A stretch of DNA of 64,000 bases from an uncultured virus (IMG/VR IMGVR_UViG_3300032167_004205) (taxonomy: Duplodnaviria > Heunggongvirae > Uroviricota > Caudoviricetes), in the IMG/VR virus record IMGVR_UViG_3300032167_004205; one strand, given 5' to 3'. Under the pieces are notes generated by a model. That model made no database searches and was not told where the DNA came from. It saw only the letters and a list, made by a program, of their open reading frames with translations. The translations under genes and the position numbers were made by a program. Of the stretch, positions 16,901-35,632 are shown in pieces (the first letter of the stretch is position 1; every line of letters begins with the position of its first letter).

Positions 16901-17010
16901 AAGATTTTTTTAATAAAAGAATTTAGTGTAAATGGTATCTTTTTGGAATATTCTGTGCTATTATGTTTTCAGAATATTCTGTCACTTGCAGTTTCGAAGG
17001 AGGTTATATT

Positions 17011-19514: not shown

Positions 19515-20177
19515 ATGATAAAGAAAACATTATTGAACGCTAATCCAGACATTGCGGCTGAATGGCATCCCACCAAAAATGGCTCGCTTACTCCTGAGCG
19601 TGTAGCGCTTCGGAGCAATAAAAAAGTATGGTGGAAATGTAAAAAGGGGCACGAATGGGAAGCGTATATCTCCAATCGAACACGCTGGGATGGCTGCCCC
19701 TACTGTGTCGGACGGCTGCCGATTGTTGGAGAAACGGACCTATTGACCACGCATCCGCAACTGGCTGCTGAGTGGCATTCTACAAAGAATGGTTTTGGAC
19801 CAGATACCGTTTCGGCCGGAAGTCATAAAAAGGTGTGGTGGATCTGTTCGCGTGGCCATGAGTGGAACACTACTGTTAATAGCAGAACTGCAACCCCCCT
19901 TGGCTGCCCTTATTGTGCGAACAAGAAGCTCCTGAAAGGGTTCAATGACTTTGCCACACGGTATCCGGAAATTGCAAAAGAGTGGCACCCGACAAAAAAT
20001 GCCCCCCTCCTCCCCTCTGAGTTTATCCTTACCCAGGATAAGGCTTGGTGGATCTGTTCCTCTTGTGGTCACGAATGGCTTGCTTATATCAAAAACCGAG
20101 CAAAAGGGAGCGGCTGCCCCGCTTGTGCGAATAAACGAAAAGGCAGAAATACGCAGCTGATGGAGAAACGCAAATGA
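19515..20177 (+). CDS. Triple zinc-ribbon (DUF4379-like) protein
   Basis: Three repeats of P..A.EWHPTKN...KVWW.C..GHEW......R....GCPYC; no nuclease domain. Confidence 0.85.
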   Translation: MIKKTLLNANPDIAAEWHPTKNGSLTPERVALRSNKKVWWKCKKGHEWEAYISNRTRWDGCPYCVGRLPIVGETDLLTTHPQLAAEWHSTKNGFGPDTVSAGSHKKVWWICSRGHEWNTTVNSRTATPLGCPYCANKKLLKGFNDFATRYPEIAKEWHPTKNAPLLPSEFILTQDKAWWICSSCGHEWLAYIKNRAKGSGCPACANKRKGRNTQLMEKRK

Positions 20178-20794
20178 AAAATCTGACCGGACAACGATTC
20201 GGCCGGCTTATTGCCATTCGGCCAACCGAGGAAAGGCGACATGGGTCGGTTGTGTGGGAATGCACCTGTGATTGCGGAATCACTGCATTTATTGCGAGTG
20301 CAGAACTGCGCGACGGCAAAACAAAATCCTGTGGTTGCCTGAGAAAAGAGCTTGCAGCAAAACTTAGCACTCGGGCACATAAGGATTTTATAGGCCAGAG
20401 ATTTGGCCGGCTTACTGTGATCAGGGAAAGCGAAAGACGGCTGAACGATGCTTTGCTATGGGAATGTCTGTGTGATTGTGGAAATATCGCCTATGCAACA
20501 GGTTATCAGCTGAAAAGTGGGCGATCACGGTCTTGCGGATGTCTGCGTAAAGAATATATGGTGAAGCGCGGGCAGGCGCGAAAGATTGATCTGACAGGCA
20601 AACGGTTTGGACGCCTGATGGTTGTTCGTGAAATGGAAGAGCGACGAAAGAAAGCTGTCATGTGGGAATGCGTTTGCGATTGCGGGAACACAACAGTTGC
20701 CAGTAGCTACGCATTGAAAAGCGGAGGTAAAAGGTCTTGTGGGTGTCTCAGAAAAGAAAACACCAAGATGCTAAGTGCTATGCGCAGAAAGTAA
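20174..20794 (+). CDS. Protein of three DLTGQRFGRL/WECxCDCG/SCGC repeats
   Basis: Repeat domain usually seen N-terminal to HNH/AP2 domains; no catalytic domain here. Confidence 0.85.
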   Translation: MKNLTGQRFGRLIAIRPTEERRHGSVVWECTCDCGITAFIASAELRDGKTKSCGCLRKELAAKLSTRAHKDFIGQRFGRLTVIRESERRLNDALLWECLCDCGNIAYATGYQLKSGRSRSCGCLRKEYMVKRGQARKIDLTGKRFGRLMVVREMEERRKKAVMWECVCDCGNTTVASSYALKSGGKRSCGCLRKENTKMLSAMRRK

Positions 20795-20855: not shown

Positions 20856-20884
20856 TTGACAAGATTGGTATTTAGTGGTACAAT
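20856..20884 (+). promoter_or_regulatory. SigA-type promoter
   Basis: TTGACA-17-TACAAT with extended TG. Confidence 0.75.
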
Positions 20885-20917: not shown

Positions 20918-21235
20918 ATGAGCGGTGCTGATATCATATATGCAATGCTGAAACAGAAAGGTTGGACCCAGGCTCGCTTAAATGAAGCCATGGGCTATAC
21001 TTCTCCCGGCACCATGTCTAACCGGCTCCGGCGTGGCAGTATGTCTGTGAAGGTATTCAGTGACATCGTGGATGTATTGGGTTTTCAGATCCATATCCAC
21101 CCGATAGCTGAGCCGGGAAAAACGGTCAATATTGCCCAGTTCTGCGAAACGGAACTGAATGTCAAAACCTTGTTTGATGTAATGGATATCTTGGGGTATA
21201 AGATGACTTTTTCCCCAGAGTTAGAAATCAATTAA
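20918..21235 (+). CDS. Cro/XRE-like HTH protein
   Basis: KQKGWTQARL.EAMG.....MSNRL.RG motif; partly duplicated C-terminal half. Confidence 0.75.
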   Translation: MSGADIIYAMLKQKGWTQARLNEAMGYTSPGTMSNRLRRGSMSVKVFSDIVDVLGFQIHIHPIAEPGKTVNIAQFCETELNVKTLFDVMDILGYKMTFSPELEIN

Positions 21236-21325: not shown

Positions 21326-21367
21326 AGTGCCTGAGTGCCTTGGAGAAATCCGGGGCACTCTTTTTTT
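21326..21367 (+). terminator. Leader terminator with tandem AGTGCC motif (site 1)
   Basis: AGTGCC-T-GAGTGCCTTGGA-GAAA-TCCGGGGCACTC-T7, ending 26 nt before the terminase ATG. Confidence 0.85.
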
Positions 21368-21393
21368 ATTGCCCTGAGCAGGAGGTTTTTTAC

Positions 21394-23043
21394 ATGACGG
21401 AGGACAGAGCCAATCTGATCGAGCGGCTATTCGCATCCGACACAAACGATGTAAAAATTGTTCGAGGCATTTTTGACTTGGCCCGAGCGGAAAATTCTAT
21501 GTCCATCGGACGCCGGGTGCGCAACCTGGCAGCGGAAAAGACCCGTACCCACCGGGGCAAACCCCAGCAAAAAGAGTTTATGGAATTGTATTGGGATATC
21601 ATGCTGTGGCTGGCGCCGAATGATTTTGACAGCTTCATGCTATACCTAGAGCGGAATCGTAAACCACAGGACAGGTTCTATCAGCCACGCCGCAAGCAGT
21701 TGAAACCCATTTGTGATTCCTTGCAGGCGTTGGTCGATGATGAAATAGATCAGTTGTTTTTGAGCTGCCCTCCCCGTATCGGCAAGAGCGCCATCGTCAA
21801 CTTTTTCTTTGCGTGGATTATGGGCCGAGACCCAGAGGTTTCGAACCTATACAGTTCATACAGTGCTTATGTAACCAAGACTTTTTACACCGGTGTTCTG
21901 GAGGTTTTGAATGACCCGGACACCTACTGTTTCAGTGAGATCTTCCCAAAAGCAAAACTGGCGTCCACTGATGCTCAGGACTTACGCTTGGATATGGGAA
22001 GAAAGAAAAAGTATCCTACTTTGACTTGCCGTTCCATAGACGGTGCGCTCAATGGCGGGGCCGATTGTCAAGGGATATTATGCGGGGATGACCTCGTAGA
22101 AGGGATCGAAGAGGCCGTTTCTCCTGACCGTCTGACAAAAAAATGGAGCACGGTACTGAACAACCTCCTTCCTCGTCAGGTCGGAGACCGCGGAAAAATC
22201 CTGTTTATAGGTACGCGCTGGAGCTTGGCAGACCCCATCGGGAAGCAAATCGACTTGCTGGAGAACAACCCAGACTATGCTAACGTGCGGTATACTGTCA
22301 TTAATATTCCCGCCCTGAATGAAAACGAGGAATCCAACTTCGATTATGAATATGGCAAGGGCATGAGCACCCAGCAATACAAGCAGCGCCGTGCGGCCAT
22401 GGAGGAAGCCGGCCAAATCGCAGACTGGGAAGCACAATACATGGGAAATCCCATAGAGCGTAACGGACAACTGTTCAATCCGGACATGATGCGCTTTTAT
22501 AACGGCACCTTGCCAGACGGGGAACCTGACCGGGTGTTTGCTTTTGTTGACCCGGCTTATGGCGGGGGCGATTATGTCAGCTCACCGATAGCCTATCAGT
22601 ATGGCTCCGATGTCTACATTCATGATGTTGTATACGATAACTCCGATAAGTTTGTCACCCGGCCGCTGCTGGTGTCCGCTTTCAAGCGAAATAGTGTCGG
22701 TTCTGCCATGTTTGAAGGCACTAAGACGGTTTCTGAGTACCGGGAATGGATTGATAATAAACTGCGAGAAGATGGATACCGGGTGAACATTCAGAGTAAG
22801 GCTGCCTCCACTCGCGTCCGGAAAGAAGAACGGATTTTTGAGCGGGCGCCGGAGATCCGCGAGTTCTATTTCCGCGATGCAGCTCACAGAAACTCGGAAT
22901 ATGCAGCGTTTATGCGGTGCCTACATGCCTTCACCATGACCGGGAAGAATAAATGGGACGATGCACCCGACTCATTGGCTGGACTATGTGACATGATTCA
23001 TCGGACGGCTCGAAAAGCAAAAATCATCGACCGACCTTTTTAA
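21394..23043 (+). CDS. terL: Terminase large subunit
   Basis: Walker A CPPRIGKS, Walker B GDDLVE, IGTRW, nuclease motifs VDPA.GG.D and DDAPDSL; GGAGG RBS before ATG 21394. Confidence 0.93.
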   Translation: MTEDRANLIERLFASDTNDVKIVRGIFDLARAENSMSIGRRVRNLAAEKTRTHRGKPQQKEFMELYWDIMLWLAPNDFDSFMLYLERNRKPQDRFYQPRRKQLKPICDSLQALVDDEIDQLFLSCPPRIGKSAIVNFFFAWIMGRDPEVSNLYSSYSAYVTKTFYTGVLEVLNDPDTYCFSEIFPKAKLASTDAQDLRLDMGRKKKYPTLTCRSIDGALNGGADCQGILCGDDLVEGIEEAVSPDRLTKKWSTVLNNLLPRQVGDRGKILFIGTRWSLADPIGKQIDLLENNPDYANVRYTVINIPALNENEESNFDYEYGKGMSTQQYKQRRAAMEEAGQIADWEAQYMGNPIERNGQLFNPDMMRFYNGTLPDGEPDRVFAFVDPAYGGGDYVSSPIAYQYGSDVYIHDVVYDNSDKFVTRPLLVSAFKRNSVGSAMFEGTKTVSEYREWIDNKLREDGYRVNIQSKAASTRVRKEERIFERAPEIREFYFRDAAHRNSEYAAFMRCLHAFTMTGKNKWDDAPDSLAGLCDMIHRTARKAKIIDRPF

Positions 23044-23395
23044 CTGAATGGTTATTTGATTTTTCGGCAATAAAAAAAGGTGGTAAGCAATGCTTGCCAC
23101 CTTCATTCATTGTGGGAAAAACACATTAAAACCAGCTATACATATATCGTTTAACACTGCAAACCGATAAAATTATACTTTTTGAAAAAGAACCCATTAA
23201 ATATAACCGATTCTGTAACCCGGCGGTGCTATAATAACCTAAAATTGGGGTTACTATACTTTGTAAAAAAGTAGACCTCTTAACCATCGAAAATACACTC
23301 CCATCACCCTGATACGATTTGCCGAATCGTCCTAAGTTTTACTCCGAATTTCATCATACCGCATCCCACTATTTTCGAGAAAGGAGGACAGGGTT

Positions 23396-26300
23396 TTGCA
23401 GAAGTATGATATAAACATGGCGAAGCATTTTCAAGTGCGCCGCCGATGGAACAACATCTGGAAAAGAATCACGATGGCCCTGGCCTCCGTGGTGGTTTTC
23501 TGCACCGTTTACGCTTTGATCCTGCCCGCTATTACTATGGAACCCGAGTATATATGCGGCCAAGAATCTCATCTTCATACAGAGGCATGCTATCAGCTGC
23601 CCGAACTGACGACCCTATCCAGCCTGATCTGCACCTCTGACACTTTAGGAGTCCATAACCATACACCCGAATGTTACGACGAAAACGGCGAGCCCAAGTG
23701 CGGTATCGCCGACTTTGTGTTGCATACACATCATTCTGATTGCTTTGATGTAAACGGTGAATTGGTTTGTTCACTGCCTGAAATTAAAGCGCACATTCAC
23801 GACGAAGCCTGCTGGCAGCATCCTCATGTTCATGATGAACCCTGCTTCATCCAGCAGCATGGCGAGCTCCTTTGTACTCTGGAAGAGGGAAGTTTACATA
23901 CCCACCTGGATACCTGCTATATCCAGCAGCAAAACCTAATCTGCTCGCTCCCTGAAACAGAGTCTCATACCCATACCACGGAAGCCTGCTATACGGAAAC
24001 AAAGACTCTGCTCTGCAACCAGTCTGAGGTAGAAGCCCACACCCATTCTGACAACTGTTATACCATAGAAACTATTCAGATCTGCTCCCAAGAAGAAACT
24101 GAAGGTCATACTCATGGCGATGGTTGTTTTGCAGAGGATGGTTCCACAATCTGTGTCTTACCCGAGATTGCTAGTCATACCCATACGGACGCCTGTTTCC
24201 AGACCACTTCCAATTTCACCTGTACACTGACGGAGACTGCAGGGCACAGCCACAGCGATACCTGCTACTCCGAGCCGACCAGTACCCTTATCTGCACAAC
24301 TGAAGAAACCGACGGCCACACCCACAGCGACACTTGTTATGAAACTGTAAGTGTGGTTACTTGTGCCCTTGAAGAGAATATTCCTCACGCGCACACCGAC
24401 TCCTGTTTTGTTTGCACTCCCGTTCTGCAGTGCGCTCAGCCGACTGGAGAAGACGCTGTTTCTGTCCTGAACTGTGAAAAGAAAGAGCTGATCCTCCACA
24501 CCCACGAAAGTGCTTGCTTTGACCAGACTGGCGCCTGTGTTTGCGGTTTGCTGGAGATTTCTGAACATATTCATGACTATACCTGCTTTGTGATTACCCA
24601 AGCTCAAACCGCCGAACCTGTCCTTGTTTGTGACTATGAGGAGCATGAACACACCGAGGTTTGTATCGCTCAGAAAGAAACGGACAACATAATCACCAGC
24701 GACCAGCTCATTGCCGAAGGTTTTTATTGCGGCATTGCGAAACACATCCATAAACCCGAAAACGGCTGTTTCGTTGAGGATGGCATGCTCATGTGTACCA
24801 TGACCGAGCATGAGCACACCGAGTTGTGTAATCTGGACCCCGCCAAACGGGACCAGACCGACCCCGCCGATGACTGGACCTTCTGGCTGGAGTCCATGCC
24901 CGCGCCCACCGGTGTTGCAGCCGACGACCTACTGGAAGTGGCCCGCTTGCAGCTGGATTACAGACAGAGCGCCGACTATTACACCGTCACCGAAGAAGAG
25001 GAAATCCTCTATTACAACCGTTATGCTGGTTGGTGGGCGTCGTTATATGATGAAGTGCCTTATGGCGACTGGAACGCCAAGCTGATTGCCTTCTGTCTGT
25101 CGGCTGCCGACATTCCCTTCCCCCTGGCAGAAACCCCTTCCGACTGGCTTTGGGATCCTGAACTGGCTGATTACCTACTTGCTGAAGGCGAGCTCCCCTT
25201 CCCCGCCGACATAGTCTTTTTGGACAACAACCGGGTGGGCATTGTCACTGCAGTGGACGCTGAAAAGGGTAAGCTGGATGTCATCCTCGAATGGAACGGC
25301 AAAGTCCGTGAAAAGACCTTCGCCCTGGACAAAGACGTTTTGGCCTTGGCCCGCATTCCCGGCAACCAGCCTGAAGGATCTTTGGAACCTCTTCCCGGCG
25401 AGATCGTCCTGCCGGAACAGTTCGTGTATGAAGACGAATGGCTGACCATGGTGCTCACGGTGGAGGGCAACGCCGCTCTGCCCGAGGGCGCCGTCCTGTC
25501 GGAAGAGACGCTTCTGCCCGAGCCTGTTCTGACCGTTCAGATGCTGGATGACGAAAGCGATTTGTACTGGCAACTGATGGACGCCGCCCAGGAGCACGGC
25601 GAAGAGGGCGGCCTGCTGGGCCTCACCGCTATGGAGCTTCAGTTCTGGTACGGTGAGTATCTGCTGGACACCACCGCCTGCGCCATGACCGCCCAGATCA
25701 CCCTGAAAGAAACCCTGCTGGCTCCGCCGGTGCAGACCTATTCCCTGCGCGCGGCAGTCCCCACCCCCGCGCCTGAGGCCGAGACTGGTGTGGAAGTGGC
25801 GGTCATCCAGGCCGACGGCACGGCTATCACCGGTACGGATACTGCTTTCTTTGAGACCGGCGCGCCGTCTCCCACCATGACCTTCGCCGTGACCAATAAT
25901 GTGATTGCGGTAGCCACTTCCACGACCGCTAACCCTCACTTCACGGTGCAATATTACGCCAACATCCCTCGTGTTCAGTGGAGCGATACGGCTACTACGA
26001 GTGGCACCTTGCAGATTATTAATACAGAAGGTGGCAATTTGCCGAAAAACGGTCAGTCCATCCCCATGAAGTATTTGCGGCTGGACAACAACATGACGGT
26101 TCTGCGGCAAAACACATTGACTGAGGTTTATGCGGAGCACAACTATGAATATATTACTGCGCCCAACCTGATCTACTTCAACCGTTTATACGAAAATGCA
26201 AACTATTCGTTAAAAGAAGTCTGGATGCTGAAATCTGGTCGTTCTGCTGAAAGTATGAATCGCGAGGATTGGAATTTTTACAATCCAAACACGATCCACT

Positions 26301-27955
26301 TCACGAATCGTGATGAATCGGTATCCGACACGACCATTCTGATTGATGATGGTGCGATCATCCGACTGGTTTATGACACGACACAGACCGACTATCAAAA
26401 CAAGGTTAATTTCTACGATTACGATATTACCGACGGCAAGCTGTATACCACCGAAGCAAATGCACGGGCGCAGTCTTCTCCGGTTTCTTCAGCAGCTGCT
26501 GGCACGAAATATTTTATGAAGTCTGACAGTTTTGCCGGTGATGACCAGGAAGGTATCAACTCCCACACAAACTATGGATCTACCGGCATAAAGTTTGCCT
26601 TCGGTAACGCAAACACCCGAGTTAAATTATGCCTCAATAGCTGGAATGGTCAGACTCTCAACAAAGCCAATTCCAATAACGCAACTGCTTGCACCTACGG
26701 TATCGCCAGCACACTTACAAATGGGAAGATTCAATATGCCGACGGAATCGCGGTGCCAAAGCTATTTGACGATGGCGCGGCTCTCGGAAAAACCGAATTC
26801 CCGAATTGCACGTTGGAGTTTGGTCGTGTAGGCGATACGTATACGCTGAAAAAGGTATATGACAAATCGGGAACGGTCATCGACAGTGGGCTGGATACTT
26901 TTACTGAGCGAACTAATTGGAACAAAACTAAAATAATGTACGCCAACGACTTCTGGCCGTTGGATAAAGCTCACTCTTATACAAACAACTATGCCTCTGG
27001 CCATGATATGCTGTTTGGTGCAACAGAGAATCAATTAACTTTTGTTGGAGCTCCTTATGATCTTAGTGATAAACAGAAAAACGATGATGGTCTGGAAAAC
27101 AACCCCACGAGTGACGACGCTATCGATCACAACGCCTACTTCGGTATGCAGTACGCGGTCAACTTTGAACTGACCGAAGATTATATTGGCCCTCTGGAAT
27201 ACCTGTTCTTCGGTGACGATGATATGTGGGTGTTCCTGACCCATCCGAACGGTAAATGCGAGTTGATTTGCGACATCGGCGGCGTCCACTCCTCCGTGGG
27301 TGAATACGTCAACCTGTGGGACTATATCGACGATGACGCATCCGGCACCCATACCCTGAGCTTCTACTACACTGAGCGCGGAGCTTCCGGTTCTTCCTGC
27401 TATATGCAGTTTACCTTACCCTCGGTTTCCTCTGCCACCCCTGAGCAGAGCACCGGACACCTTCGAGTCGAAAAAGAAGTAGCTGGTGCAGTAGTCGATC
27501 AGGAAAAGGAGTACCACTTCGATATCAAATTTACCGATGCTGCGGGCAACCGTCTGCTGGATGAGTATTCTTACACTCGCTATGCCAAAGATGGAAGAGT
27601 CATCAAAACCGACATTATTCTGTACGATGGAGGCAGTTTTGAACTGCGGGGTGGAGAATACATCATTGTTCGCTACCTGCCAAATGGTGCAAAATACGAA
27701 ATTACAGAAGCGAACCCAGACAACAGCTTTATAACGACTGTAAACGGAGTGGAAACTGCAACTGTATCCGGAACCATCGAAAAGATGAATACAGAAGTTG
27801 TAAGGTATACCAACACCTTCTACTATGAGCTGCCGGAGACCGGTGGCGGAGGTGCGGCAAACTACTGGATCTGTGGAGGCCTGCTGGCGATTATGCCCTG
27901 TTTGTGGCTGCTGCGCCGGCAGCGATACAGAGGAAGGAGGGTTACCGGTGGCTGA
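23396..27955 (+). CDS. LPxTG-anchored pilus-associated adhesin with His/Cys repeats, degenerate CHAP-like and fibro-slime domains
   Basis: About 18 C-x(4-8)-HxH-x(3-5)-C repeats; FFGDDDMWVF...DIGGVH...FYYTERG; LPETG plus TM segment and basic tail. Confidence 0.85.
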   Translation: MQKYDINMAKHFQVRRRWNNIWKRITMALASVVVFCTVYALILPAITMEPEYICGQESHLHTEACYQLPELTTLSSLICTSDTLGVHNHTPECYDENGEPKCGIADFVLHTHHSDCFDVNGELVCSLPEIKAHIHDEACWQHPHVHDEPCFIQQHGELLCTLEEGSLHTHLDTCYIQQQNLICSLPETESHTHTTEACYTETKTLLCNQSEVEAHTHSDNCYTIETIQICSQEETEGHTHGDGCFAEDGSTICVLPEIASHTHTDACFQTTSNFTCTLTETAGHSHSDTCYSEPTSTLICTTEETDGHTHSDTCYETVSVVTCALEENIPHAHTDSCFVCTPVLQCAQPTGEDAVSVLNCEKKELILHTHESACFDQTGACVCGLLEISEHIHDYTCFVITQAQTAEPVLVCDYEEHEHTEVCIAQKETDNIITSDQLIAEGFYCGIAKHIHKPENGCFVEDGMLMCTMTEHEHTELCNLDPAKRDQTDPADDWTFWLESMPAPTGVAADDLLEVARLQLDYRQSADYYTVTEEEEILYYNRYAGWWASLYDEVPYGDWNAKLIAFCLSAADIPFPLAETPSDWLWDPELADYLLAEGELPFPADIVFLDNNRVGIVTAVDAEKGKLDVILEWNGKVREKTFALDKDVLALARIPGNQPEGSLEPLPGEIVLPEQFVYEDEWLTMVLTVEGNAALPEGAVLSEETLLPEPVLTVQMLDDESDLYWQLMDAAQEHGEEGGLLGLTAMELQFWYGEYLLDTTACAMTAQITLKETLLAPPVQTYSLRAAVPTPAPEAETGVEVAVIQADGTAITGTDTAFFETGAPSPTMTFAVTNNVIAVATSTTANPHFTVQYYANIPRVQWSDTATTSGTLQIINTEGGNLPKNGQSIPMKYLRLDNNMTVLRQNTLTEVYAEHNYEYITAPNLIYFNRLYENANYSLKEVWMLKSGRSAESMNREDWNFYNPNTIHFTNRDESVSDTTILIDDGAIIRLVYDTTQTDYQNKVNFYDYDITDGKLYTTEANARAQSSPVSSAAAGTKYFMKSDSFAGDDQEGINSHTNYGSTGIKFAFGNANTRVKLCLNSWNGQTLNKANSNNATACTYGIASTLTNGKIQYADGIAVPKLFDDGAALGKTEFPNCTLEFGRVGDTYTLKKVYDKSGTVIDSGLDTFTERTNWNKTKIMYANDFWPLDKAHSYTNNYASGHDMLFGATENQLTFVGAPYDLSDKQKNDDGLENNPTSDDAIDHNAYFGMQYAVNFELTEDYIGPLEYLFFGDDDMWVFLTHPNGKCELICDIGGVHSSVGEYVNLWDYIDDDASGTHTLSFYYTERGASGSSCYMQFTLPSVSSATPEQSTGHLRVEKEVAGAVVDQEKEYHFDIKFTDAAGNRLLDEYSYTRYAKDGRVIKTDIILYDGGSFELRGGEYIIVRYLPNGAKYEITEANPDNSFITTVNGVETATVSGTIEKMNTEVVRYTNTFYYELPETGGGGAANYWICGGLLAIMPCLWLLRRQRYRGRRVTGG

Positions 27956-28028
27956 GAAACGGCCCCTTTTCCAAACTTTTCCGCAAAAATTATTTTGTTA
28001 TAGAGAAAGAAGAAAGGAAGAAAATCGA

Positions 28029-29462
28029 ATGAAAAAGTTTTTAGCGATCTTGATGACCCTGGTTCTCATGCTCTCCCTGGCCGTGCCGGCAATGGCTGTG
28101 GGCGATGGTAAAATTACCATTGACAATGCTGTTAAAGACCAGACTTACACTATTTATAAGATTTTTGATTTGGAAAGCTTTAGCGGCGAAAACTATGCCT
28201 ATAAAATTGCAAATACCAGCCCGTGGTATGCTTTTGTCACTGGCACTGGTGCAGGTGCTGATTATGTGACCATTGACGCCCAAGGATATGTAACTTGGAC
28301 TGCTAAAGAAGATGATGCAACTGCTGCAGCCTTTGCCAAAGCTGCTCAGGCTTACGCCAAGACAAAGAGCATTTCTAATCAGGGTGAAAAAATTGCTGTA
28401 AATGCTACTGTTGAGTTTACCGGCCTTGATTTAGGTTATTATCTGGTAGACACTACCTTGGGTACTCTGTGCTCTCTGAATACCACAGATAAAGAGGTCA
28501 CCATCAAAGAAAAGAACGTAGCTCCCGTCATTACCAAGAAAGTTGAGGAAGATTCCAACAACTTTTGGGGCGAGACTAACGATGCCGACATCAATCAGGT
28601 TGTCAACTTTAAGGCCACTATCACCGTTCAGAAGGGTGCCGAAAACTACATCCTGCACGATACCATGTCTACTGGCCTGACCTATAATGGTGTTACGTCC
28701 GTTAAGAGCGGTAATACTGCTGTGACTGCTGCGAACTACCAAGTGATTGATAATCCTACCGATAGTTGCACTTTTGAAGTCAAATTTGACAATGCATATA
28801 TTACTTCTTTGCCTGCTGGCACGGAGATTGTGGTTGAATACTCTGCCACTCTGAATGAGAACGCTGTTGTTGGTCTGGACGGAAACACCAATAAAGTCAA
28901 ATTGCAATATGGTGACGAGAATAAGCCCTCCTATACTCCCGAGGATACTACCGTTACCTACACTTGGGATGCAAAAGTTGTGAAGTACACCCAAAATGGT
29001 GCCACTGAAGTCATGCTGGCAGATGCTACTTTCAAACTGAGCACCGACAATGCAGCCACTACTGTTCTCAAGCTCCATAATCTGGGCGACAATAAGTATG
29101 AAGTCTGTGCTAAGGGCGATTGCGGCGAGAATCATGTGACTGAAATCACCACTGATGCCACCGGTATTTTCAATATTGAGGGCTTGGATTCTGGTACTTA
29201 CTATTTGACCGAAACTGCTGCTCCCGCTGGTTATAACAAACTGGCCAATCCTGTGACCATTGAGATTACGGGTGCTACTACCGGTGATGATGATAAGTTG
29301 ATTTACAGCACCGTTGAAACTAAGGTTCTGAACCAGTCCGGCACCGAGCTCCCCGAAACCGGCGGTATGGGCACCACCATCTTCTACATCGTGGGCGGCG
29401 TCATGGTCGTGGCCGCTGTGGTCCTGCTGATCACCAAGAAGCGTATGGGCACCGAGGGTTAA
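28029..29462 (+). CDS. Backbone pilin (SpaH/EbpC-like)
   Basis: Signal peptide from ATG 28029; E-box YYLTETAAPAGY; LPETGG sorting signal. Confidence 0.92.
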   Translation: MKKFLAILMTLVLMLSLAVPAMAVGDGKITIDNAVKDQTYTIYKIFDLESFSGENYAYKIANTSPWYAFVTGTGAGADYVTIDAQGYVTWTAKEDDATAAAFAKAAQAYAKTKSISNQGEKIAVNATVEFTGLDLGYYLVDTTLGTLCSLNTTDKEVTIKEKNVAPVITKKVEEDSNNFWGETNDADINQVVNFKATITVQKGAENYILHDTMSTGLTYNGVTSVKSGNTAVTAANYQVIDNPTDSCTFEVKFDNAYITSLPAGTEIVVEYSATLNENAVVGLDGNTNKVKLQYGDENKPSYTPEDTTVTYTWDAKVVKYTQNGATEVMLADATFKLSTDNAATTVLKLHNLGDNKYEVCAKGDCGENHVTEITTDATGIFNIEGLDSGTYYLTETAAPAGYNKLANPVTIEITGATTGDDDKLIYSTVETKVLNQSGTELPETGGMGTTIFYIVGGVMVVAAVVLLITKKRMGTEG

Positions 29463-29542
29463 ACTACATAGCTGATTTCATCACATAAACACCCAAACCG
29501 GGGAGGGGAAACCCTCCCCGGTTACAGTATCAAGGAGAGTCC

Positions 29543-30367
29543 ATGAAGAAGCATCTTTCTACCATCATTTTAATACTTATCTTCCTTATTGGCCTGTCCT
29601 TGGTGCTATACCCCACGGTGGCAGACTACTGGAACTCTCTCCACCAGTCACGAGCCATCGCCACCTACGCCGAAGAAGTCGCCAACATCGACACTGACAA
29701 ATATACCGAAGTTTGGCAGACAGCGGTAGAATACAATCGGAGCCTGCGGAACCGAGACAACATCTTTATCCTGTCTGACGAACAAAAAGTACAGTATGAT
29801 GAGCTTTTGAATGTGGGCGGCAACGGTGTTATGGGTTATATTGAGATCCCCAGCATCGGCGTCTCCCTTCCGGTCTATCATGGTACCGACGAGGCGGTTT
29901 TGCAGATCGCCATCGGCCATCTGGAGTGGACAAGCCTGCCGGTGGGCGGCGAAAGCACCCATTGCGTGGTCTCCGGCCACACCGGTCTACCCTCAGCTAA
30001 GCTGTTTACCAACCTGAATCAGCTGGAAAAGGGGGATACCTTCCTGTTTCGCATTCTGGACGAGACCCTTACTTATGAGGTAGACCAGATTTTGATCGTC
30101 CTACCCCAGGAAACCGACGCGCTGCACATCGAAGAGGACAAGGATCTTTGCACACTGGTGACCTGCACGCCCTACGGCGTTAACAGCCACCGGCTTTTGG
30201 TGCGGGGACACCGGGTAGAGAACGCCGAGATCGCAAAGACCATCCGTGTCACAGCCGACGCCATGCAGATTGAGCCGCTGATCGTGGCACCGCTGGTGGC
30301 AGTACCCATGCTGCTGGTGTTGCTGATCATGGTCATGTTCGGCGGTAGAAAGAAGGGAGGAAGGTGA
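29543..30367 (+). CDS. srtC: Class C sortase
   Basis: SGHTGLP, TLVTCTPYGVNSHRLLVRG; N- and C-terminal TM segments. Confidence 0.95.
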   Translation: MKKHLSTIILILIFLIGLSLVLYPTVADYWNSLHQSRAIATYAEEVANIDTDKYTEVWQTAVEYNRSLRNRDNIFILSDEQKVQYDELLNVGGNGVMGYIEIPSIGVSLPVYHGTDEAVLQIAIGHLEWTSLPVGGESTHCVVSGHTGLPSAKLFTNLNQLEKGDTFLFRILDETLTYEVDQILIVLPQETDALHIEEDKDLCTLVTCTPYGVNSHRLLVRGHRVENAEIAKTIRVTADAMQIEPLIVAPLVAVPMLLVLLIMVMFGGRKKGGR

Positions 30368-30368
30368 A

Positions 30369-31223
30369 GTGATGGGCAATCAAAAGACCAACTACCCCAA
30401 AATTACCGTTGGCTACCGTGTGGGCAAACTAATGGTGGCCGAACCTACGGACAACCGAAAAAACGGCTATATGATCTGGCGCTGTTCCTGTAACTGTGGG
30501 GGAGAAATTCTGTTGGATACCCGCACCCTTCAGCGCGGAACGATTTCCGATTGTGGCTGCGCTACGAGGGTTTCTCCCGGACAAAAAGACCTCACCGGTA
30601 TGCGCTTTGGGCATCTTGTATGTCTGGAACCTACGAATCAGCGCAGCAAAGGTGGCAGTACAATCTGGCAGTGCAAATGTGACTGCGGCAGCGAATGTTT
30701 CGCCGCCAGCAAACAGTTGACGCGGGGATATAAAAAAAGCTGTGGTTGCCTGAGCCATCCTCCCTTGAAAGACTATGTTGGGAAACGATTTGGTCAGCTG
30801 ACCGTCGTAAACTATTATGGCAAACTGGAAGGTGCCCACCGTTGGGCGTGCAAATGCGACTGCGGCAACACGACAATCGTCCACCAGACACTGCTGCAAT
30901 CCGGCAAAACCAAAAGCTGCGGCTGCCTGCAGGCCAACATTATCAAGGACAACATGAAGTTCGTGGATGGAACGTCCGTAACGATGTTGGAGAATGCTGA
31001 AAAACGGCTGATCTGCTCCAACTCCAGCGGTCATAATGGTGTTTATTTGAACAAAAAAACAAAAAAATGGGTCGCGCAAATCACGTTTAAAGGGAAGACC
31101 TATTACCTTGGCACCTTTGCGAAAATCGAAGACGCCGTCACTGCCCGGAAGAAGGCAGAAGAGCGCATGTATGGCGAGTTTTTGGCGTGGTATCACGAAG
31201 AATACACCTCCCAAAATCCATAA
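30369..31223 (+). CDS. Three CxCDCG/SCGC repeats fused to an AP2 domain
   Basis: Repeats followed by N.SGHNGV.......KWVAQI.......YLG.F...EDA..AR..AE; no HNH motif. Confidence 0.85.
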   Translation: MMGNQKTNYPKITVGYRVGKLMVAEPTDNRKNGYMIWRCSCNCGGEILLDTRTLQRGTISDCGCATRVSPGQKDLTGMRFGHLVCLEPTNQRSKGGSTIWQCKCDCGSECFAASKQLTRGYKKSCGCLSHPPLKDYVGKRFGQLTVVNYYGKLEGAHRWACKCDCGNTTIVHQTLLQSGKTKSCGCLQANIIKDNMKFVDGTSVTMLENAEKRLICSNSSGHNGVYLNKKTKKWVAQITFKGKTYYLGTFAKIEDAVTARKKAEERMYGEFLAWYHEEYTSQNP

Positions 31224-31276
31224 GGTTCCGGTAAGTCCGCGGGCCGTGGTCCAATTGCCATCTCAGAGAAAGAGCA

Positions 31277-31322
31277 AAAATCCCGCAAACCCTTGAAACA
31301 ACAGGGGTTGCGGGATTTTTTT
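31277..31322. terminator. Bidirectional terminator closing the pilus block
   Basis: AAAAATCCCGCAAACCCT...AGGGGTTGCGGGATTTTTT. Confidence 0.8.
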
Positions 31323-31499
31323 GTGTTTTTGTGCGGTTATAATCCCAGGGCAAGGCCGTCCCGGTGGGGGTCGGCGGCAAATGTAGTTTTGAAGCATTGC
31401 CGCTGCTTCTTTGTATTGGATGTAAAAGGCAACCTCCCTACCGTACAATTGCTATGAGCGTTTGCGATAAAACTTGACTGAAAGTTCCGTTAAATCATA

Positions 31500-31528
31500 T
31501 TGACAGTATGAAATAAGCTCGGTAAAAT
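31500..31528 (+). promoter_or_regulatory. SigA-type promoter upstream of the head operon
   Basis: TTGACA-17-TAAAAT; the -35 is overlapped by the near-palindrome TCATATTG-A-CAGTATGA. Confidence 0.75.
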
Positions 31529-31666
31529 TTAAGTAGGTACTTTTTCCTACACAGTACTCAGATGGCTCCCTGCAGAGCGGTAAAGCCCACTTCCTCCCCC
31601 CTCCCCTTTTCCGTGTCGGTTGACAATGATGGTGGAAGTACGGCACTCCTTTTTTATTTGCAAAGC

Positions 31667-31840
31667 GGGGATTCACTGGGGAAGACAGTTTTGCAGTTTC
31701 CAGACCTTCTCCCCCCTCAAATTGGTCAAGCGAAACGCCGGCATACAGGCAAAGCCGCAAACCTGTATATGCCGCTGAATGCGGCACCCTGGGAACTGCA
31801 TATTTGGGCAAAGTGGGTTCAACTCCCGCAATTCCCATCA
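31667..31840 (+). ncRNA. tRNA-like structured RNA with a large insert
   Basis: Acceptor-like GGGGATT/AATTCCC+A; T-arm GTGGG-TTCAACT-CCCGC; D-like ACTG-GGGAAGA-CAGT; 12-bp stem 31692-31703/31789-31800. Confidence 0.6.
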
Positions 31841-31860
31841 AATCAAACTAAAACAGGTCG

Positions 31861-32046
31861 GTGAATGTATTTTTGCCAAACGACATCGTAAAGGTTTTCT
31901 GCCCCGCTTGCAGCACATGGCTGTGTATGGTCGGAACAGAAACTACCGGCCGGATCGCTCCCTATTGCAAGCGATGTAAAAAGAATATCATTATTAAACT
32001 AAGTGCCGAGTGCCAGTCATCTTGTACGCAGAACGCAAGTGTATGA
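31861..32046 (+). CDS. Mu Com-like zinc-finger protein
   Basis: 61 aa, VFCPACSTWL...YCKRCKKNIII; CxxC...CxxC layout and size resemble Com. Confidence 0.7.
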   Translation: MNVFLPNDIVKVFCPACSTWLCMVGTETTGRIAPYCKRCKKNIIIKLSAECQSSCTQNASV

Positions 32047-32070
32047 GTTGACTGGCACTTTTTTGTTTTT
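32002..32070 (+). terminator. Leader terminator with tandem AGTGCC motif (site 2)
   Basis: AGTGCC-G-AGTGCCAGTCA...TGACTGGCACT-TTTTTGTTTTT directly before the portal RBS. Confidence 0.85.
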
Positions 32071-32084
32071 GGAGGTGTTTTTTA

Positions 32085-33551
32085 TTGCTAGGCAGACGAA
32101 AAATATTCTGCGATGCTGACACAATCCATACCGGCAATATTGAAGAGATCATCGCAGAAGCCTTACGCATTCATCACCAGAATGCCAGAGAAATCAAATA
32201 CCTCCGTCGTTACCTTGCCGGCGATCAGCCAATTTTGCACCGGACAAAGAAGACCCGTGAGGATATCACCAACAAAGTCGTTGTAAACACCGCCAGTGAG
32301 GTCATGGACTTCAAATTATCCTATATCTTTGGCTCACCTATCGACATCGTCCGCTCTGCCAACTCAGACACGACTGTTGACATCACACCATTTCAGCAAA
32401 TGATGGATGAGCAAGGCAAAGACGACGTTGATCAGACAATCGCGCTGGATATGCTCACTTGCGCCTTGGGTTATCGCGGTATATTGCCTAACCCAAACGA
32501 TGGGGACCTCTCCCCTTTTTGTATTGTGGACATGGCTCCGGAAACTACCTTTTGCGTCTATCAAAACGACGTGTTCAAACGAAAAGTCCTTGGTGTGTCT
32601 TACCTGAAAAAGCTGGATGGCTCCATGTACCTGACAGCCTATTCTGACACCACCCGTTTTGAACTTGCTTCGGTATCTCCAGGCGATACTCTGAAATTGA
32701 TCGGGGTCTCTCCCAACGGCATTGGTGCGATCCCCATTGTGGAATACGCCATGCCCGAGCTTATGGGGGCATTTGAAAAAGCCATCCCTTTAATGGATGC
32801 ATTAAATACCTCCGCTTCCAATCGTGTGGATGATTTGGAGCAGTTTGTTCAGAGCATTTTATGGATCTCCGGCGTTGATTTAGACGAACATGCTCAGGCA
32901 CAGCTGAAGGAATCCCTATGTCTCCTTACACCAAATGTCCAGGATGGAGTTCAGCCGCAGGTTAAATTCCTTGTAAACAACCTGGACCAGGCGGGCATTC
33001 AGGGCATGGTGGACGACCAGTACTATCACATTTTAGAGGTGTGCTCCGTCCCCGGCCGTGAGCAAAGCAGCGGTGGAAACACCGGCGCCGCTACCGAACT
33101 GGGGGCCGGCGGCTGGCGCAAAGCGCAATACAGCGCCGACCGCATCATTTCCGCTTGGAAAAAGGGTGACCGTGAAATGTACCGTGTGGCCCTGGCCATC
33201 CTTGAAAAAAGCTCCAAAACCCCGGCTTCCTTAGCCGGTCTGAAGGTCACAGACCTTCAAACTAAGTTCACTTTGAGCAAGTCCAATGACCTTCTTACCA
33301 AAACACAGGGTATGTTAAACCTGATGCAGGCAGGTGTCTCCCCTCGCATCGCCTATCGTGAGGTGGGTGTGTTCTCTGACCCTGAACAGGTTTATGAAGA
33401 GAGCAAGAACACCGCCGACAAAGCTATGGAGAAGATGCACGGCACCGAGGATAAGTCCCTGGGCGCTGTGGATGTGACTAATCAGCCCCAGACGGCAGAC
33501 AGTTTGGAACGGAATGTTACCGGCAAGGGCAACATCCAGAAGCAGGACTAA
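32085..33551 (+). CDS. Portal protein (SPP1 gp6-like)
   Basis: NKVVVN.A....DFK.SY.FGSPI, NGIGAIPIVEY and D.LN...SNR.DD.EQFVQS motifs; GGAGGTG RBS and TTG start. Confidence 0.9.
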   Translation: MLGRRKIFCDADTIHTGNIEEIIAEALRIHHQNAREIKYLRRYLAGDQPILHRTKKTREDITNKVVVNTASEVMDFKLSYIFGSPIDIVRSANSDTTVDITPFQQMMDEQGKDDVDQTIALDMLTCALGYRGILPNPNDGDLSPFCIVDMAPETTFCVYQNDVFKRKVLGVSYLKKLDGSMYLTAYSDTTRFELASVSPGDTLKLIGVSPNGIGAIPIVEYAMPELMGAFEKAIPLMDALNTSASNRVDDLEQFVQSILWISGVDLDEHAQAQLKESLCLLTPNVQDGVQPQVKFLVNNLDQAGIQGMVDDQYYHILEVCSVPGREQSSGGNTGAATELGAGGWRKAQYSADRIISAWKKGDREMYRVALAILEKSSKTPASLAGLKVTDLQTKFTLSKSNDLLTKTQGMLNLMQAGVSPRIAYREVGVFSDPEQVYEESKNTADKAMEKMHGTEDKSLGAVDVTNQPQTADSLERNVTGKGNIQKQD

Positions 33552-33554
33552 CCT

Positions 33555-34151
33555 ATGCTCCCTATCGACGAGTTAAATGTTCTGCGCTCTCAGCTTCGGG
33601 AATTGGTTTCCGCCGTACAGCGTGAAGTCGTACAGTATGACAACATTGATTTTCTGATAGACCTCCTTGCCTCCACGGTAGTCCCTATTGTGGAAGAGTG
33701 GTTGGAGACAGAGTACGACAAAGCCTACCGTTCCGGTATTGAGCCATGGCTCAACGCCCTCCCGGATGATGCCGCTCGAACACGGGCGCTTTACACATCG
33801 GTAGGTGGAAAAACCTTTGTCGAGCGCATCGAAGAATATGCTGCCGGGGATCTAGGGCTGTTTGTCTCAAAAGTAGAAACGCTTTTAAAGACAGACGGCC
33901 ATCGTGTCCGCTCAACGGGCACATTACACGCCGGCGAAACGCTATCCTCCGTGGGTCTGACGGTGCATAAGACCTGGCGTGGTGTTTTGGACGAACAGGA
34001 GCGGGATGCCCACATTGCTCTGGAAGGTGTAAGCCTGCCATTGGACGGCCTGTTTCAGGTGGCCGAGCACACCGCTCCCGCTCCGGGCCTGTTTAACAAC
34101 CCGGCCCTGGACTGTAACTGCCGATGTGAACTGGAAATCAGCGTAACATGA
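33555..34151 (+). CDS. Head morphogenesis protein (Mu gpF/SPP1 gp7-like)
   Basis: KTW...D...R..H..L.G...P.D..F...PG...NCRC motif; follows the portal. Confidence 0.8.
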   Translation: MLPIDELNVLRSQLRELVSAVQREVVQYDNIDFLIDLLASTVVPIVEEWLETEYDKAYRSGIEPWLNALPDDAARTRALYTSVGGKTFVERIEEYAAGDLGLFVSKVETLLKTDGHRVRSTGTLHAGETLSSVGLTVHKTWRGVLDEQERDAHIALEGVSLPLDGLFQVAEHTAPAPGLFNNPALDCNCRCELEISVT

Positions 34152-34204
34152 CACAAGTCTTGTGTATGACTTAAAAATCACTTGTATATACCTGAAATTA
34201 TTTT

Positions 34205-34262
34205 AGTGCCATCAGTGCCGTTCTTCTCCTCTTTTTGGAGGTTATGGAACGGCACTTTTTTT
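34205..34262 (+). terminator. Leader terminator with tandem AGTGCC motif (site 3)
   Basis: AGTGCC-ATC-AGTGCCGTTC...GAACGGCACT-T6 upstream of the scaffold gene. Confidence 0.85.
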
Positions 34263-34343
34263 ATATTTCGGGTCCCCGGCCCCGTATTGCCGGAGAACAC
34301 ATTCCGCGGCCCCAACCGCTGTATCAAATGGAGGACATACAAA

Positions 34344-34931
34344 ATGGATTTGAAAACCCTGTTAGGCGACGCCTATAAAGACGACATGACCTTGGAAGAC
34401 ATCAATACCGCATTATCCAACCGCACGTTATTTGACGAAAGCGAACTGGAATCTCGTGTGGCCAACCGCACTGCAGCACAAAAGCGCCTGTTAGACACTG
34501 CCAACAAAAAATTGGCAGACGCGTTGGCCAAGCACAACGCCACCAGCGGCGAAAATGCAGATCTCCTGGCCCGTATCGCTACCTTGGAAACAGAATCCAT
34601 GGAAAACAAACGTGCCGCTGCCATCGCAAGAGAAACGGCATCCTATGTCTCCATGGGCTATCCGGAGGAGCTTGCAAGATCCACGGCTGAGGCATTGGTC
34701 GATGGCGATACCGTCACGATCAACGCTAACCTTGCGACCTTTATCACACAAAAAACAGCTGCCATTCGTGAAGAACTGATGAAAAGCACGCCTGCACCTT
34801 CTGCCAGCGGCAACACAAGTGCGCTTACTATGGATTACTCCAAAGCCAAACTGGACGCACTCAGCGCCGGTGATGAAGTGGCCTATATGCGTATCTGCCG
34901 TGAAGAAATGGAGCAACTTGCTCAACAATGA
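34344..34931 (+). CDS. Capsid scaffolding protein
   Basis: GGAGG RBS, MDLKTLLGDAY start; coiled-coil character; position before the capsid gene. Confidence 0.75.
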   Translation: MDLKTLLGDAYKDDMTLEDINTALSNRTLFDESELESRVANRTAAQKRLLDTANKKLADALAKHNATSGENADLLARIATLETESMENKRAAAIARETASYVSMGYPEELARSTAEALVDGDTVTINANLATFITQKTAAIREELMKSTPAPSASGNTSALTMDYSKAKLDALSAGDEVAYMRICREEMEQLAQQ

Positions 34932-35614
34932 CGGTGATCAAGTCTATCTCCTATGACCAGTCTGAGATCATCAAAAACATTTTAAAGCTGTATGTTCCTG
35001 ATGAACGCATCGACGTCGACAGCACCTACAGCAGGGGTTATTTCTACAAAAACACTGGCATCGCGGAGCCGCGATACAAGTTTGACATTTCCCCGCAAAG
35101 CGAATCTGTTTCGTTCGGAGACAGCCGCAACCTTCCACTCCCTGGCCAAAGTGTGCAGTGCATGATGTTTGACCCGCCGTTTTTGGCCACAACGGGGAAA
35201 TCGCTTAATGAGGACACAGGAAATATCATCAACCGCCGTTTTGGTGTGTATGCCAGTGAACACGCGCTGCATCAGTTTTATGTAGACAGCCTAACTGAGG
35301 CACATCGTGTGCTCAAACCAAACGGCATCTTGATTTTCAAATGCCAGGACAAGGTCAGCAGTGGAAAGCAATACATGAGCCATGTATTTATCGCAAACGC
35401 CGCTGTAAAGGCCGGATTTTATCCGAAAGACCTGTTTATTTTGCTTGCCAAATCCCGCTTGGTGGCCAACTGGCAGGCCAAAAACCAAAAACACGCACGG
35501 AAATACAATGCTTACTTTTGGGTTTTTGAGAAATCCAGTAAGCGAATACAGTACTTAGCCGAAAACACTTGCGAGAGCGGTTCAGTCGTTCCAGGAGCCA
35601 TCCACGCAAACTAA
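34928..35614 (+). CDS. Amino (N6-A/N4-C) DNA methyltransferase
   Basis: D.TYS.G SAM-binding-like motif, FDPPF catalytic motif, EAHRVLKPNG. Confidence 0.85.
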   Translation: MTVIKSISYDQSEIIKNILKLYVPDERIDVDSTYSRGYFYKNTGIAEPRYKFDISPQSESVSFGDSRNLPLPGQSVQCMMFDPPFLATTGKSLNEDTGNIINRRFGVYASEHALHQFYVDSLTEAHRVLKPNGILIFKCQDKVSSGKQYMSHVFIANAAVKAGFYPKDLFILLAKSRLVANWQAKNQKHARKYNAYFWVFEKSSKRIQYLAENTCESGSVVPGAIHAN

Positions 35615-35632
35615 CTTTCTGGAGGAATGACC

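Follow-up and report, generated by a model that had tools for sequence, protein, structure and literature searches.

A candidate zinc-ribbon RNA switch at the tandem AGUGCC terminators before the late genes of phages from gut Clostridia

In a stretch of 64,000 nucleotides (nt) of DNA from an uncultured virus of the Caudoviricetes (IMG/VR record IMGVR_UViG_3300032167_004205; the whole stretch is called the window below), three intrinsic terminators lie just upstream of the terminase gene terL, the portal gene and a block of scaffold, methyltransferase and capsid genes, and each of them is introduced by two copies of the word AGTGCC. One of these tandem repeats lies within the 3' end of a gene for a protein of 61 amino acids (aa) with a CxxC...CxxC arrangement of cysteines. 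Our analysis of these sequences suggests that this zinc-ribbon protein probably binds the tandem words and opens the terminators for the late genes. The motif, the hairpins, their positions and conservation, the linkage between gene and motif and the co-variation of the repeat specificity with the protein type were all obtained by computation. Little is known of how phages of Gram-positive gut anaerobes control their late genes, and no published description of a system pairing this motif with a zinc ribbon was found in the openly available portion of the full-text literature.

The pattern AGTGCC-N(0-6)-AGTGCC occurs three times in the 64 kb, always on the + strand (starts at 21326, 32002 and 34205), where 0.03 occurrences are expected, and none of 100 shuffled sequences gave three matches. 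The lone word is not enriched in the window (32 observed versus 27.7 expected). RNA folding places the second AGTGCC of all three sites at the 5' foot of a hairpin, paired with GGCAC(U) and followed by a U-tract. Site 1 consists of the tandem repeat AGTGCC-TG-AGTGCC (21326-21339, + strand), a proposed protein-binding RNA site with a spacer of 2 nt, and of a terminator at 21333-21367 (+), with a hairpin at 21333-21360 (-22 kcal/mol, z -4.4) and a U-tract at 21361-21367, 26 nt before the terL start. At site 2, the repeat AGTGCC-G-AGTGCC (32002-32014, +; spacer 1 nt) leads into a terminator at 32008-32070 (+), composed of a hairpin at 32008-32060 (-33.6 kcal/mol, z -5.3) and a U-rich tract at 32060-32070. 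Site 3 carries AGTGCC-ATC-AGTGCC (34205-34219, +; spacer 3 nt) and a terminator at 34214-34263 (+), with a hairpin at 34214-34256 (-26.2 kcal/mol, z -6.3) and a U-tract at 34257-34263. By sequence and folding, a GC-rich hairpin is thus directly followed by a U-tract at each of the three sites, the form of an intrinsic terminator. A MAFFT alignment misaligned the sites and revealed nothing alignable outside the motif, the upper stems being unrelated. The putative recognition word therefore overlaps the 5' arm of the terminator and is conserved independently of the remaining stem, which is the arrangement of passive antitermination. A search of the whole window with Rfam 15 found no family at the gathering score, and the database holds no model for the motif-terminator element.

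Much of this had been pointed out by an earlier sequence-only reading of the window, whose description of the sequence proved correct throughout and which proposed a Com-like late-gene antiterminator, named after the small zinc-finger protein Com of phage Mu. All three sites that it described, with spacers of 2, 1 and 3 nt and at terminators upstream of the genes listed above, are present; the RNA folds agree with its pairing of the second hexamer, at the base of the 5' arm, with the GGCAC before the U-tract; and its view that the motif is conserved apart from the hairpin holds both in the window and among the roughly 130 viral stretches described below, whose stems are unrelated. It had also placed SigA-like promoters at 20856 and 31500, facing sites 1 and 2, and these proved to be the two best sigma-70-like matches within 18-37 kb, as judged by consensus match only. 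The first (20856-20884, +; TTGACA-17-TACAAT with TG) faces a helix-turn-helix gene and site 1, and the second (31500-31528, +; TTGACA-17-TAAAAT) lies upstream of a leader and the zinc-ribbon gene; each agrees with the consensus at 11 of 12 positions.

The zinc-ribbon gene (31861-32046, +; CPAC...CKRC) encodes the proposed trans-acting RNA-binding regulator. Its start is ambiguous, being either GTG at 31861 or TTG at 31873. As the sequence-only reading had stated, site 2 lies inside this open reading frame (ORF), which reads ...KLSAEC... across the motif, and the stop codon (32044-32046) falls inside the 3' arm of the hairpin. The four cysteines are C14, C17, C36 and C39, and an AlphaFold2 model shows a small beta zinc ribbon with a predicted local distance difference test (pLDDT) score of 75. 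The gene product thus appears to resemble Com both in size, at about 60 aa, and in having a zinc ribbon with four Cys at its N-terminus, and zinc binding is predicted. A word-indexed protein search with the ORF returned no candidate, but a family profile search of 1.8 billion proteins did find the family, as 120 clusters (50% identity), of which 35 reach E 1e-10 or better. The window protein aligns at 23-45% identity with a family characterized by CPxC...PYCKxCKKN, in which C14, C17 and C36 are invariant and the fourth zinc ligand is Cys or His. Although five of 12 members taken from this family match the Pfam family Cys_rich_KTR (PF14205) weakly (best E 0.009), these matches fall below the cut-off, and sequence comparison assigns the window protein to a CPxC...PYCKxCKKN branch separate from Cys_rich_KTR.

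The motif-terminators are widespread. A 57.9-kb IMG/VR provirus (G001) is essentially the same phage as that of the window, its three sites included. When 2.9 million viral contigs were scanned with the pattern AGTGCC-N(1-3)-AGTGCC-N(10-40)-GGCACTTTTT, at least 118 motif-terminator stretches were listed, about 130 in all, and the backwards pattern gave none. The matches comprise 30 distinct sequences with unrelated upper stems, many of which have four units arranged as two pairs. In all of 22 diverse records, the motif matches, 1-10 per record, lie on one strand, with a backwards control near zero. The nearest diverged relative, G002 (terL identity 78%), keeps all three site positions, and its stems are wholly different. 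A search for loci by way of the portal yielded only copies of the same phage, and a blastn comparison of positions 31400-34400 with GenBank phages gave no match. Two other identities for the motif were considered and rejected: a mobile 'terminator cassette' or simple duplication, given that positions are conserved across phages while stems are replaced, and a promoter element, given that the spacing varies. At one contig end (G004:C1:39280-39437), GTGCCTCCAGTGCC is repeated seven times in a tandem array with a 24-nt period, which accounts for seven of the ten G004 matches and has no coupled hairpin.

In 108 of 118 distinct motif elements analysed, pairing covers the whole of the last GUGCY unit. 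The 3' partner of this unit reads GGCAC in 84 elements, GGCGC in 10, GGCAU in 7, GGUAC in 3, GGUAU in 2 and AGCAC in 2 (opposite GUGCU), and all of these variants keep the pairing with the last unit. Terminators account for 104 of the 118. About 44 of these terminators, among them a few evident false positives of the script rule employed, also bury a Shine-Dalgarno (SD) sequence in the 3' arm, with an ORF starting 4-13 nt later. Ten elements have no U-tract, and three of these ten mask the ribosome site only, before tail genes. Where a start codon stands directly after the hairpin there is no room for a promoter, and expression therefore requires that the hairpin be overcome. These comparisons support the view that the motif works at the RNA level.

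The motif and the zinc-ribbon gene are closely linked. Upstream of the elements, several diverged phages have a small zinc-ribbon ORF whose end reaches the first repeat or falls inside it. Ten of 11 further annotated records share a layout comprising a site, terL, often tRNA genes, and a gene of the CPxC...PYCKxCKKN type encoding 50-70 aa; in eight of these ten, a motif site and then the portal gene follow the zinc-ribbon gene directly. In G005, the site after the zinc-ribbon gene precedes a different gene, and in G009 the portal gene does follow, as the comparison of terL and portal genes showed. The eleventh record, L085, has instead a KTR-type gene directly before its terL site. Further motif sites in the relatives precede scaffold, major tail and tape-measure genes. 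Among 23 records selected by the motif, 21 contain exactly one copy of the gene, which encodes about 55 aa and usually lies between terL and portal, immediately ahead of a motif-terminator; the two without it are fragments of 6 and 10 kb, one of which has a KTR-type gene instead. In the reverse direction, all 80 loci selected by the gene alone, representing 24 distinct proteins, carry the tandem motif, with 261 occurrences on the gene strand, none on the other and two in the backwards control. The co-occurrence that the sequence-only reading had suggested looking for is therefore found both ways, and the outcome that it had named as fatal, a motif lost from relatives keeping the gene, is seen at none of these loci.

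In 47 of the 80 loci, and for 14 of the 24 distinct proteins, a site is found between -60 and +450 nt relative to the gene stop. One lineage (29 loci, 6 proteins) has a triple-unit site before terL and none directly after the regulator gene. The same lineage (L155, L146, L204) contains a conserved GC-rich region of about 200 nt, located about 300 nt downstream of the regulator gene, which has a structured appearance and ends in a U-tract. Where the host of a related prophage is named, it is Flavonifractor sp. An92, Ruminococcus or Ruminococcaceae, and an Eggerthellaceae metagenome-assembled genome gave a partial fourth match (15 residues, E 5e-5). The terL and portal proteins of most motif phages are homologous to those of the window (29-78% identity), which indicates that most of them form one broad phage clade. 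G005 and L085 have unrelated terminases, yet the gene and the motif are present, the L085 gene being of the KTR type.

On the L085 fragment, the gene immediately ahead of an AGUGCC motif-terminator and terL codes for a true Cys_rich_KTR protein (38 bits against PF14205). In its relatives at 55-60% identity, the homologous place is occupied by AGAGC(U/C)-N-AGAGCC, with GGCUCU in the 3' arm. In a genome of this AGAGCC type, the second site carries the same word, and there are several sites per genome. In a scan for the AGAGCC element, 17 of the 64 parts yielded 125 stretches, corresponding to about 470 in all; they include 96 distinct elements, 17 of which directly follow small zinc-ribbon ORFs of the KTR or CPxC type. 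Of 24 AGAGCC records, 10 match PF14205, 11 match the CPxC-type profile and 19 match at least one of the two, and all nine records that are at least 90% complete carry a zinc ribbon of one type or the other. Both repeat units and the 3' arm thus change together with the protein type, as a direct protein–RNA recognition code predicts, and computation on these sequences shows that repeat specificity co-varies with protein type.

We propose that the 61-aa zinc-ribbon protein is a Com-type, sequence-specific RNA binder. Its target would be the pair of single-stranded words AGUGCC-N(1-3)-AGUGCC on late-gene transcripts as they are being made. Since the second word is the 5' foot of the terminator, the bound protein would hold this foot and prevent its pairing with GGCAC(U). 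The leftover stem would then be too far from the U-tract, and RNA polymerase would read into terL, the portal gene and the scaffold/capsid block. In the relatives, opening of the hairpin would also expose the SD sequence hidden in the 3' arm, in the way that Com acts on mom. The regulator would be transcribed from its own promoter (31500) toward its own gate, site 2, so that early transcripts would stop after the regulator gene and would extend into the structural genes once the protein accumulates, constituting a delay or threshold switch. Site 1 would gate terL behind the promoter-like site at 20856. The antiterminator interpretation of the sequence-only reading is thus supported by our comparisons, and further so because of the SD-burying hairpins, the joint change to AGAGCC and GGCUCU, and the resemblance to Mu in the Com target and in its place within the gene.

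Several results weigh against this proposal or limit its reach. The window protein does not match the Pfam model of Com (PF10122, Zn_ribbon_Com) at E values up to 10, and none of the 12 family members does so at E values up to 1, while Mu Com as a control scores 36.8 bits (cut-off 22.9 bits); the profile comparison with Mu-like Com proteins that the sequence-only reading had called for was therefore negative. The window protein also fails to match PF14205 even at E 10 (cut-off 25.5 bits). An hhalign comparison of the family with Mu Com gave a probability of 17.5% over 8 columns, a Foldseek search with the AlphaFold2 model found no match at E 0.001 or better and generic zinc ribbons only, and a sequence search of the PDB returned ribosomal zinc ribbons only, at E 0.06 or worse. 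Ten of the 24 distinct proteins (33 of the 80 loci) have no strict tandem motif after their own gene; two of these genes overlap the portal start and two others are followed by degenerate units. A promoter of the regulator's own, with at least 10 of 12 consensus matches, is found in 8 of 16 representative relatives; in the others, the gate before terL also precedes the regulator. Since the elements were picked through the motif, the constancy seen for the 5' unit is partly circular, and near-identical phages of a single metagenome dominate the sample, so that the counts of distinct sequences are safer than those of loci. Finally, we infer the binding of the protein to the RNA, the direction of its effect and the timing, and the direction, namely opening rather than stabilizing of the hairpin, is argued from logic only.

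The direction is indeed where the strongest alternative lies. The protein–RNA pair may act otherwise, with the protein clamping or nucleating the hairpin (assisted termination, translational repression or negative feedback on the late genes), or protecting or processing RNA 3' ends. The same co-occurrence and the same RNA-level evidence would fit, feedback is conceivable for a regulator within the late block, and the eight of 16 relatives in which no promoter of the regulator's own was found agree with such a role. However, the hairpins are already strong terminators unaided (-22 to -34 kcal/mol). Moreover, in about 44 of the 118 elements the SD sequence is buried and an ORF follows right after the hairpin, and essential genes such as terL would therefore need a positive factor. 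The single-stranded repeats 5' of the stem also suit sequestration of the 5' arm and match the precedent of hairpin opening by Com. We consider this alternative unlikely.

Another possibility would be that a different factor reads the repeats, such as a host protein, a small RNA or another phage protein (for instance the helix-turn-helix protein encoded at 20918-21235), the zinc-ribbon gene being merely a passenger of the lineage. Given that most motif phages share homologous terL and portal proteins, lineage and gene are confounded to that extent. Against such a passenger role, the gene stands directly before a site for 14 of the 24 distinct proteins, often overlapping it, and the gene upstream of the terL site varies among phages. 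The linkage also persists in the company of unrelated terminases, in G005 and, with a KTR-type protein, in L085; the repeat becomes AGAGCC along with the protein type; and the motif resembles the known RNA target of Com. A reader other than the zinc ribbon is, in our judgment, quite unlikely.

The repeats could, in principle, act in DNA, either as direct-repeat operators for a late activator similar to Ogr/Delta or RinA/ArpU or as a promoter element, the terminators then being independent insulators. Small zinc-finger late activators exist, P2 Ogr being one, and one of the 12 family members matches Ogr_Delta weakly (E 0.014); the strand bias, taken alone, would also fit oriented promoter elements. 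However, the last repeat is the paired 5' foot of the hairpin, fully so in 108 of 118 elements, and its 3' partner varies in a pair-compatible manner, including the GGCUCU arm that accompanies the change to AGAGCC. The distance from the repeat to the U-tract or gene start varies within the window (27, 51 and 43 nt), which is incompatible with a fixed promoter geometry, and many relatives have the start codon right after the hairpin, with no room for a promoter. Action in DNA is therefore very improbable. Classic attenuation, in which translating ribosomes entering the hairpin, and not the protein, would set the read-through at site 2, is suggested by the stop codon inside that hairpin, but it is equally improbable, given that sites 1 and 3 have no overlapping ORF (the ORFs upstream of them end 91 and 54 nt short of the motif, respectively) and that the regulator ORF of most relatives stops before or at the first repeat; at site 2 it could operate alongside the main mechanism but would not supplant it. 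Opening of the terminators by the zinc-ribbon protein remains the reading that we regard as probable.

The genes around the three sites are consistent with a packaging and head region. The first putatively gated gene, terL (21394-23043, +), encodes the large terminase (PHROG 38, E 7e-60) and has a ribosome-binding site (RBS) at 21380-21385. The second, the portal gene (32085-33551, +; SPP1_portal, E 2e-55; RBS at 32071-32075), is followed by a MuF-like gene (33555-34151, +; Phage_Mu_F, E 2e-7). The third putatively gated block (34344-36949, +) comprises a scaffold-like gene (34344-34931), assigned by its position and by a G002 homologue that follows the same kind of site, a DNA methyltransferase gene (34928-35614; PHROG 24333, E 1e-61), which lies between scaffold and capsid genes, and the major capsid gene (35627-36949). 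Between site 3 and this block, the stretch 34264-34343 is conserved with G002 (L126, after its third site), unlike the terminator stems; it includes a second small hairpin (ATATTTCGGG...CCGG...GCCGGAGAA) and may belong to the leader of the scaffold gene as an additional element.

The helix-turn-helix ORF upstream of site 1 (20918-21235, +; 105 aa) has weak matches to HTH_37 and DUF6471 and a match to PHROG 1373 'transcriptional regulator' (E 1e-6). The terminase region is flanked by three HNH-type endonuclease-like ORFs, two HNH-type zinc-finger ORFs at 19515-20794 and an HNH-AP2 endonuclease at 30369-31223; three DUF4379 treble-clef fingers are present in one of the three ORFs, another matches PHROG 374 and the remaining one is the HNH-AP2 fusion. 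Between terL and the regulator gene, the window contains a 7-kb insert (23396-30367), where relatives have a gap of only 80-700 nt. It encodes a 1519-aa DUF7601 surface protein, a 545-aa LPXTG pilin of the SpaA/Cna-B type and a sortase, and is a sortase-dependent pilus cluster, a prophage moron. The leader of about 330 nt between the 31500 promoter and the regulator gene (31535-31860) is non-coding in appearance. Its end, especially 31790-31845, is a tRNA remnant (T-arm and 3' acceptor). G002 has a tRNA-like gene at the corresponding place, with which the remnant aligns, and relatives have 1-4 intact tRNA genes at this position. ARAGORN found no tRNA or tmRNA within the window, and a permissive Rfam scan of 31200-32150 gave chance-level matches only (a Tymo tRNA-like element at E 0.34 and a 17-nt tmRNA 3' end). 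Farther upstream, a gene for an 827-aa S-layer homology protein (16963-19446) ends near the start of the provirus G001, which coordinate mapping places at about window position 19040; the left prophage boundary is therefore probably near 19.0-19.5 kb.

If the proposal is true, a protein of about 55 residues and an RNA address of 13-15 nt would gate terminase, portal, head and tail genes, and its reach would extend to hundreds of metagenomic phages (about 130 AGUGCC and about 470 AGAGCC stretches). It would also provide a testable function for the uncharacterized Cys_rich_KTR family and would extend the Com paradigm, which so far concerns one accessory gene and its translation, to a regulon and to transcription termination. 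Such RNA switches would be very small and apparently re-addressable. Flavonifractor sp. An92, a cultured host, carries a prophage of this kind.

Among known systems, lambda N/nut and Q and HK022 put offer a likeness in that genes behind terminators await a phage-encoded antitermination function. These systems modify RNA polymerase once and are then processive over many terminators, whereas at each gate described here the terminator itself contains a copy of the recognition word, suggesting that the action is local, one terminator at a time. A mechanical likeness is provided by HutP, TRAP, LicT/SacY and PyrR, where a protein on the nascent RNA, with a site overlapping an arm of the terminator or antiterminator, decides on hairpin formation. 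HutP and TRAP read tandem 3-nt words with short spacers. However, these proteins have unrelated folds, are much larger or form oligomeric rings, and none is known to be a zinc ribbon; they are regulators of host operons controlled by metabolites or phosphorylation, not of phage late genes.

The Cys_rich_KTR proteins (PF14205) also resemble the window family. They are likewise small CxxC...CxxC ribbons, from mobile elements of Firmicutes, and like the window gene their genes sit before motif-terminators, AGUGCC in L085 and AGAGCC in others. They differ in that the window protein gives no PF14205 match and falls in the separate branch described above. In the part of the full-text literature covered, Cys_rich_KTR receives passing mentions only, with no stated function.

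The closest precedent is Mu Com. Com is a 62-aa CCCC zinc-finger protein that binds mom mRNA beside a translation-inhibition hairpin and exposes the start signals (PMC6483171). The same work gives the bipartite consensus from SELEX as GAG(N)2CC-(N)2-3-GAG(N)2CC, and the native Com region beside the hairpin as GAAUGCCUGCGAGCAUCC, the Com site being modelled in a hairpin loop (PMC6483171). The window protein is, like Com, a four-Cys zinc ribbon of about 60 aa, and its putative target overlaps or adjoins a hairpin that blocks the next gene, inside the regulator's own ORF. In the Mu record, the native Com site lies inside com, directly after the second CxxC (...CKRHIIMLNACEH), and the window arrangement matches it, with ...CKKNIIIKLSAECQ over AGUGCC-G-AGUGCC just after the second CxxC. 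A putative site at an inhibitory hairpin, inside or after the regulator ORF and before the controlled gene, is thus common to the window, its relatives and Mu. The putative window target resembles that of Com, a (G)AG-NN-CC repeat in two parts with a short spacer: AGUGCC reads as AG-NN-CC, a G precedes it in two of the six window units (GAGUGCC, at sites 1 and 2), and the window spacers of 1-3 nt compare with the 2-3 nt of Com, which amounts to a resemblance to the Com target and not an identity. The few hairpins of the relatives that have no U-tract and mask the start site only are a further likeness to Com and mom. A single BLASTP comparison of the window protein with Mu Com gave 29% identity over 34 aa spanning both knuckles (E 0.001), and the label 'Com-like' is drawn from the shared architecture together with this weak pairwise match.

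There are also differences. Com acts on one accessory gene, mom, and on translation only, whereas the window has three sites and the relatives have 2-4 or more site clusters, which precede core packaging, head and tail genes and are mostly intrinsic terminators. Com belongs to Proteobacteria and the hosts here are gut Clostridia; the Pfam model of Com does not match the window protein; and, unlike the Com site as modelled in a loop in the published work, the repeats here run from single-stranded RNA into the 5' arm. In a broader view, to which we give about an even chance, Mu Com would be the lone studied member of a large, overlooked superfamily of 50-70-aa zinc-ribbon RNA switches that includes Cys_rich_KTR and the CPxC...PYCKxCKKN family. 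In gut Clostridia, the phage members of this superfamily would control all of the structural genes by opening hairpins at terminators and ribosome sites with tandem hexamer addresses, which differ between lineages, and the AGUGCC and AGAGCC types would be naturally orthogonal pairs of protein and RNA word acting on both transcription and translation.

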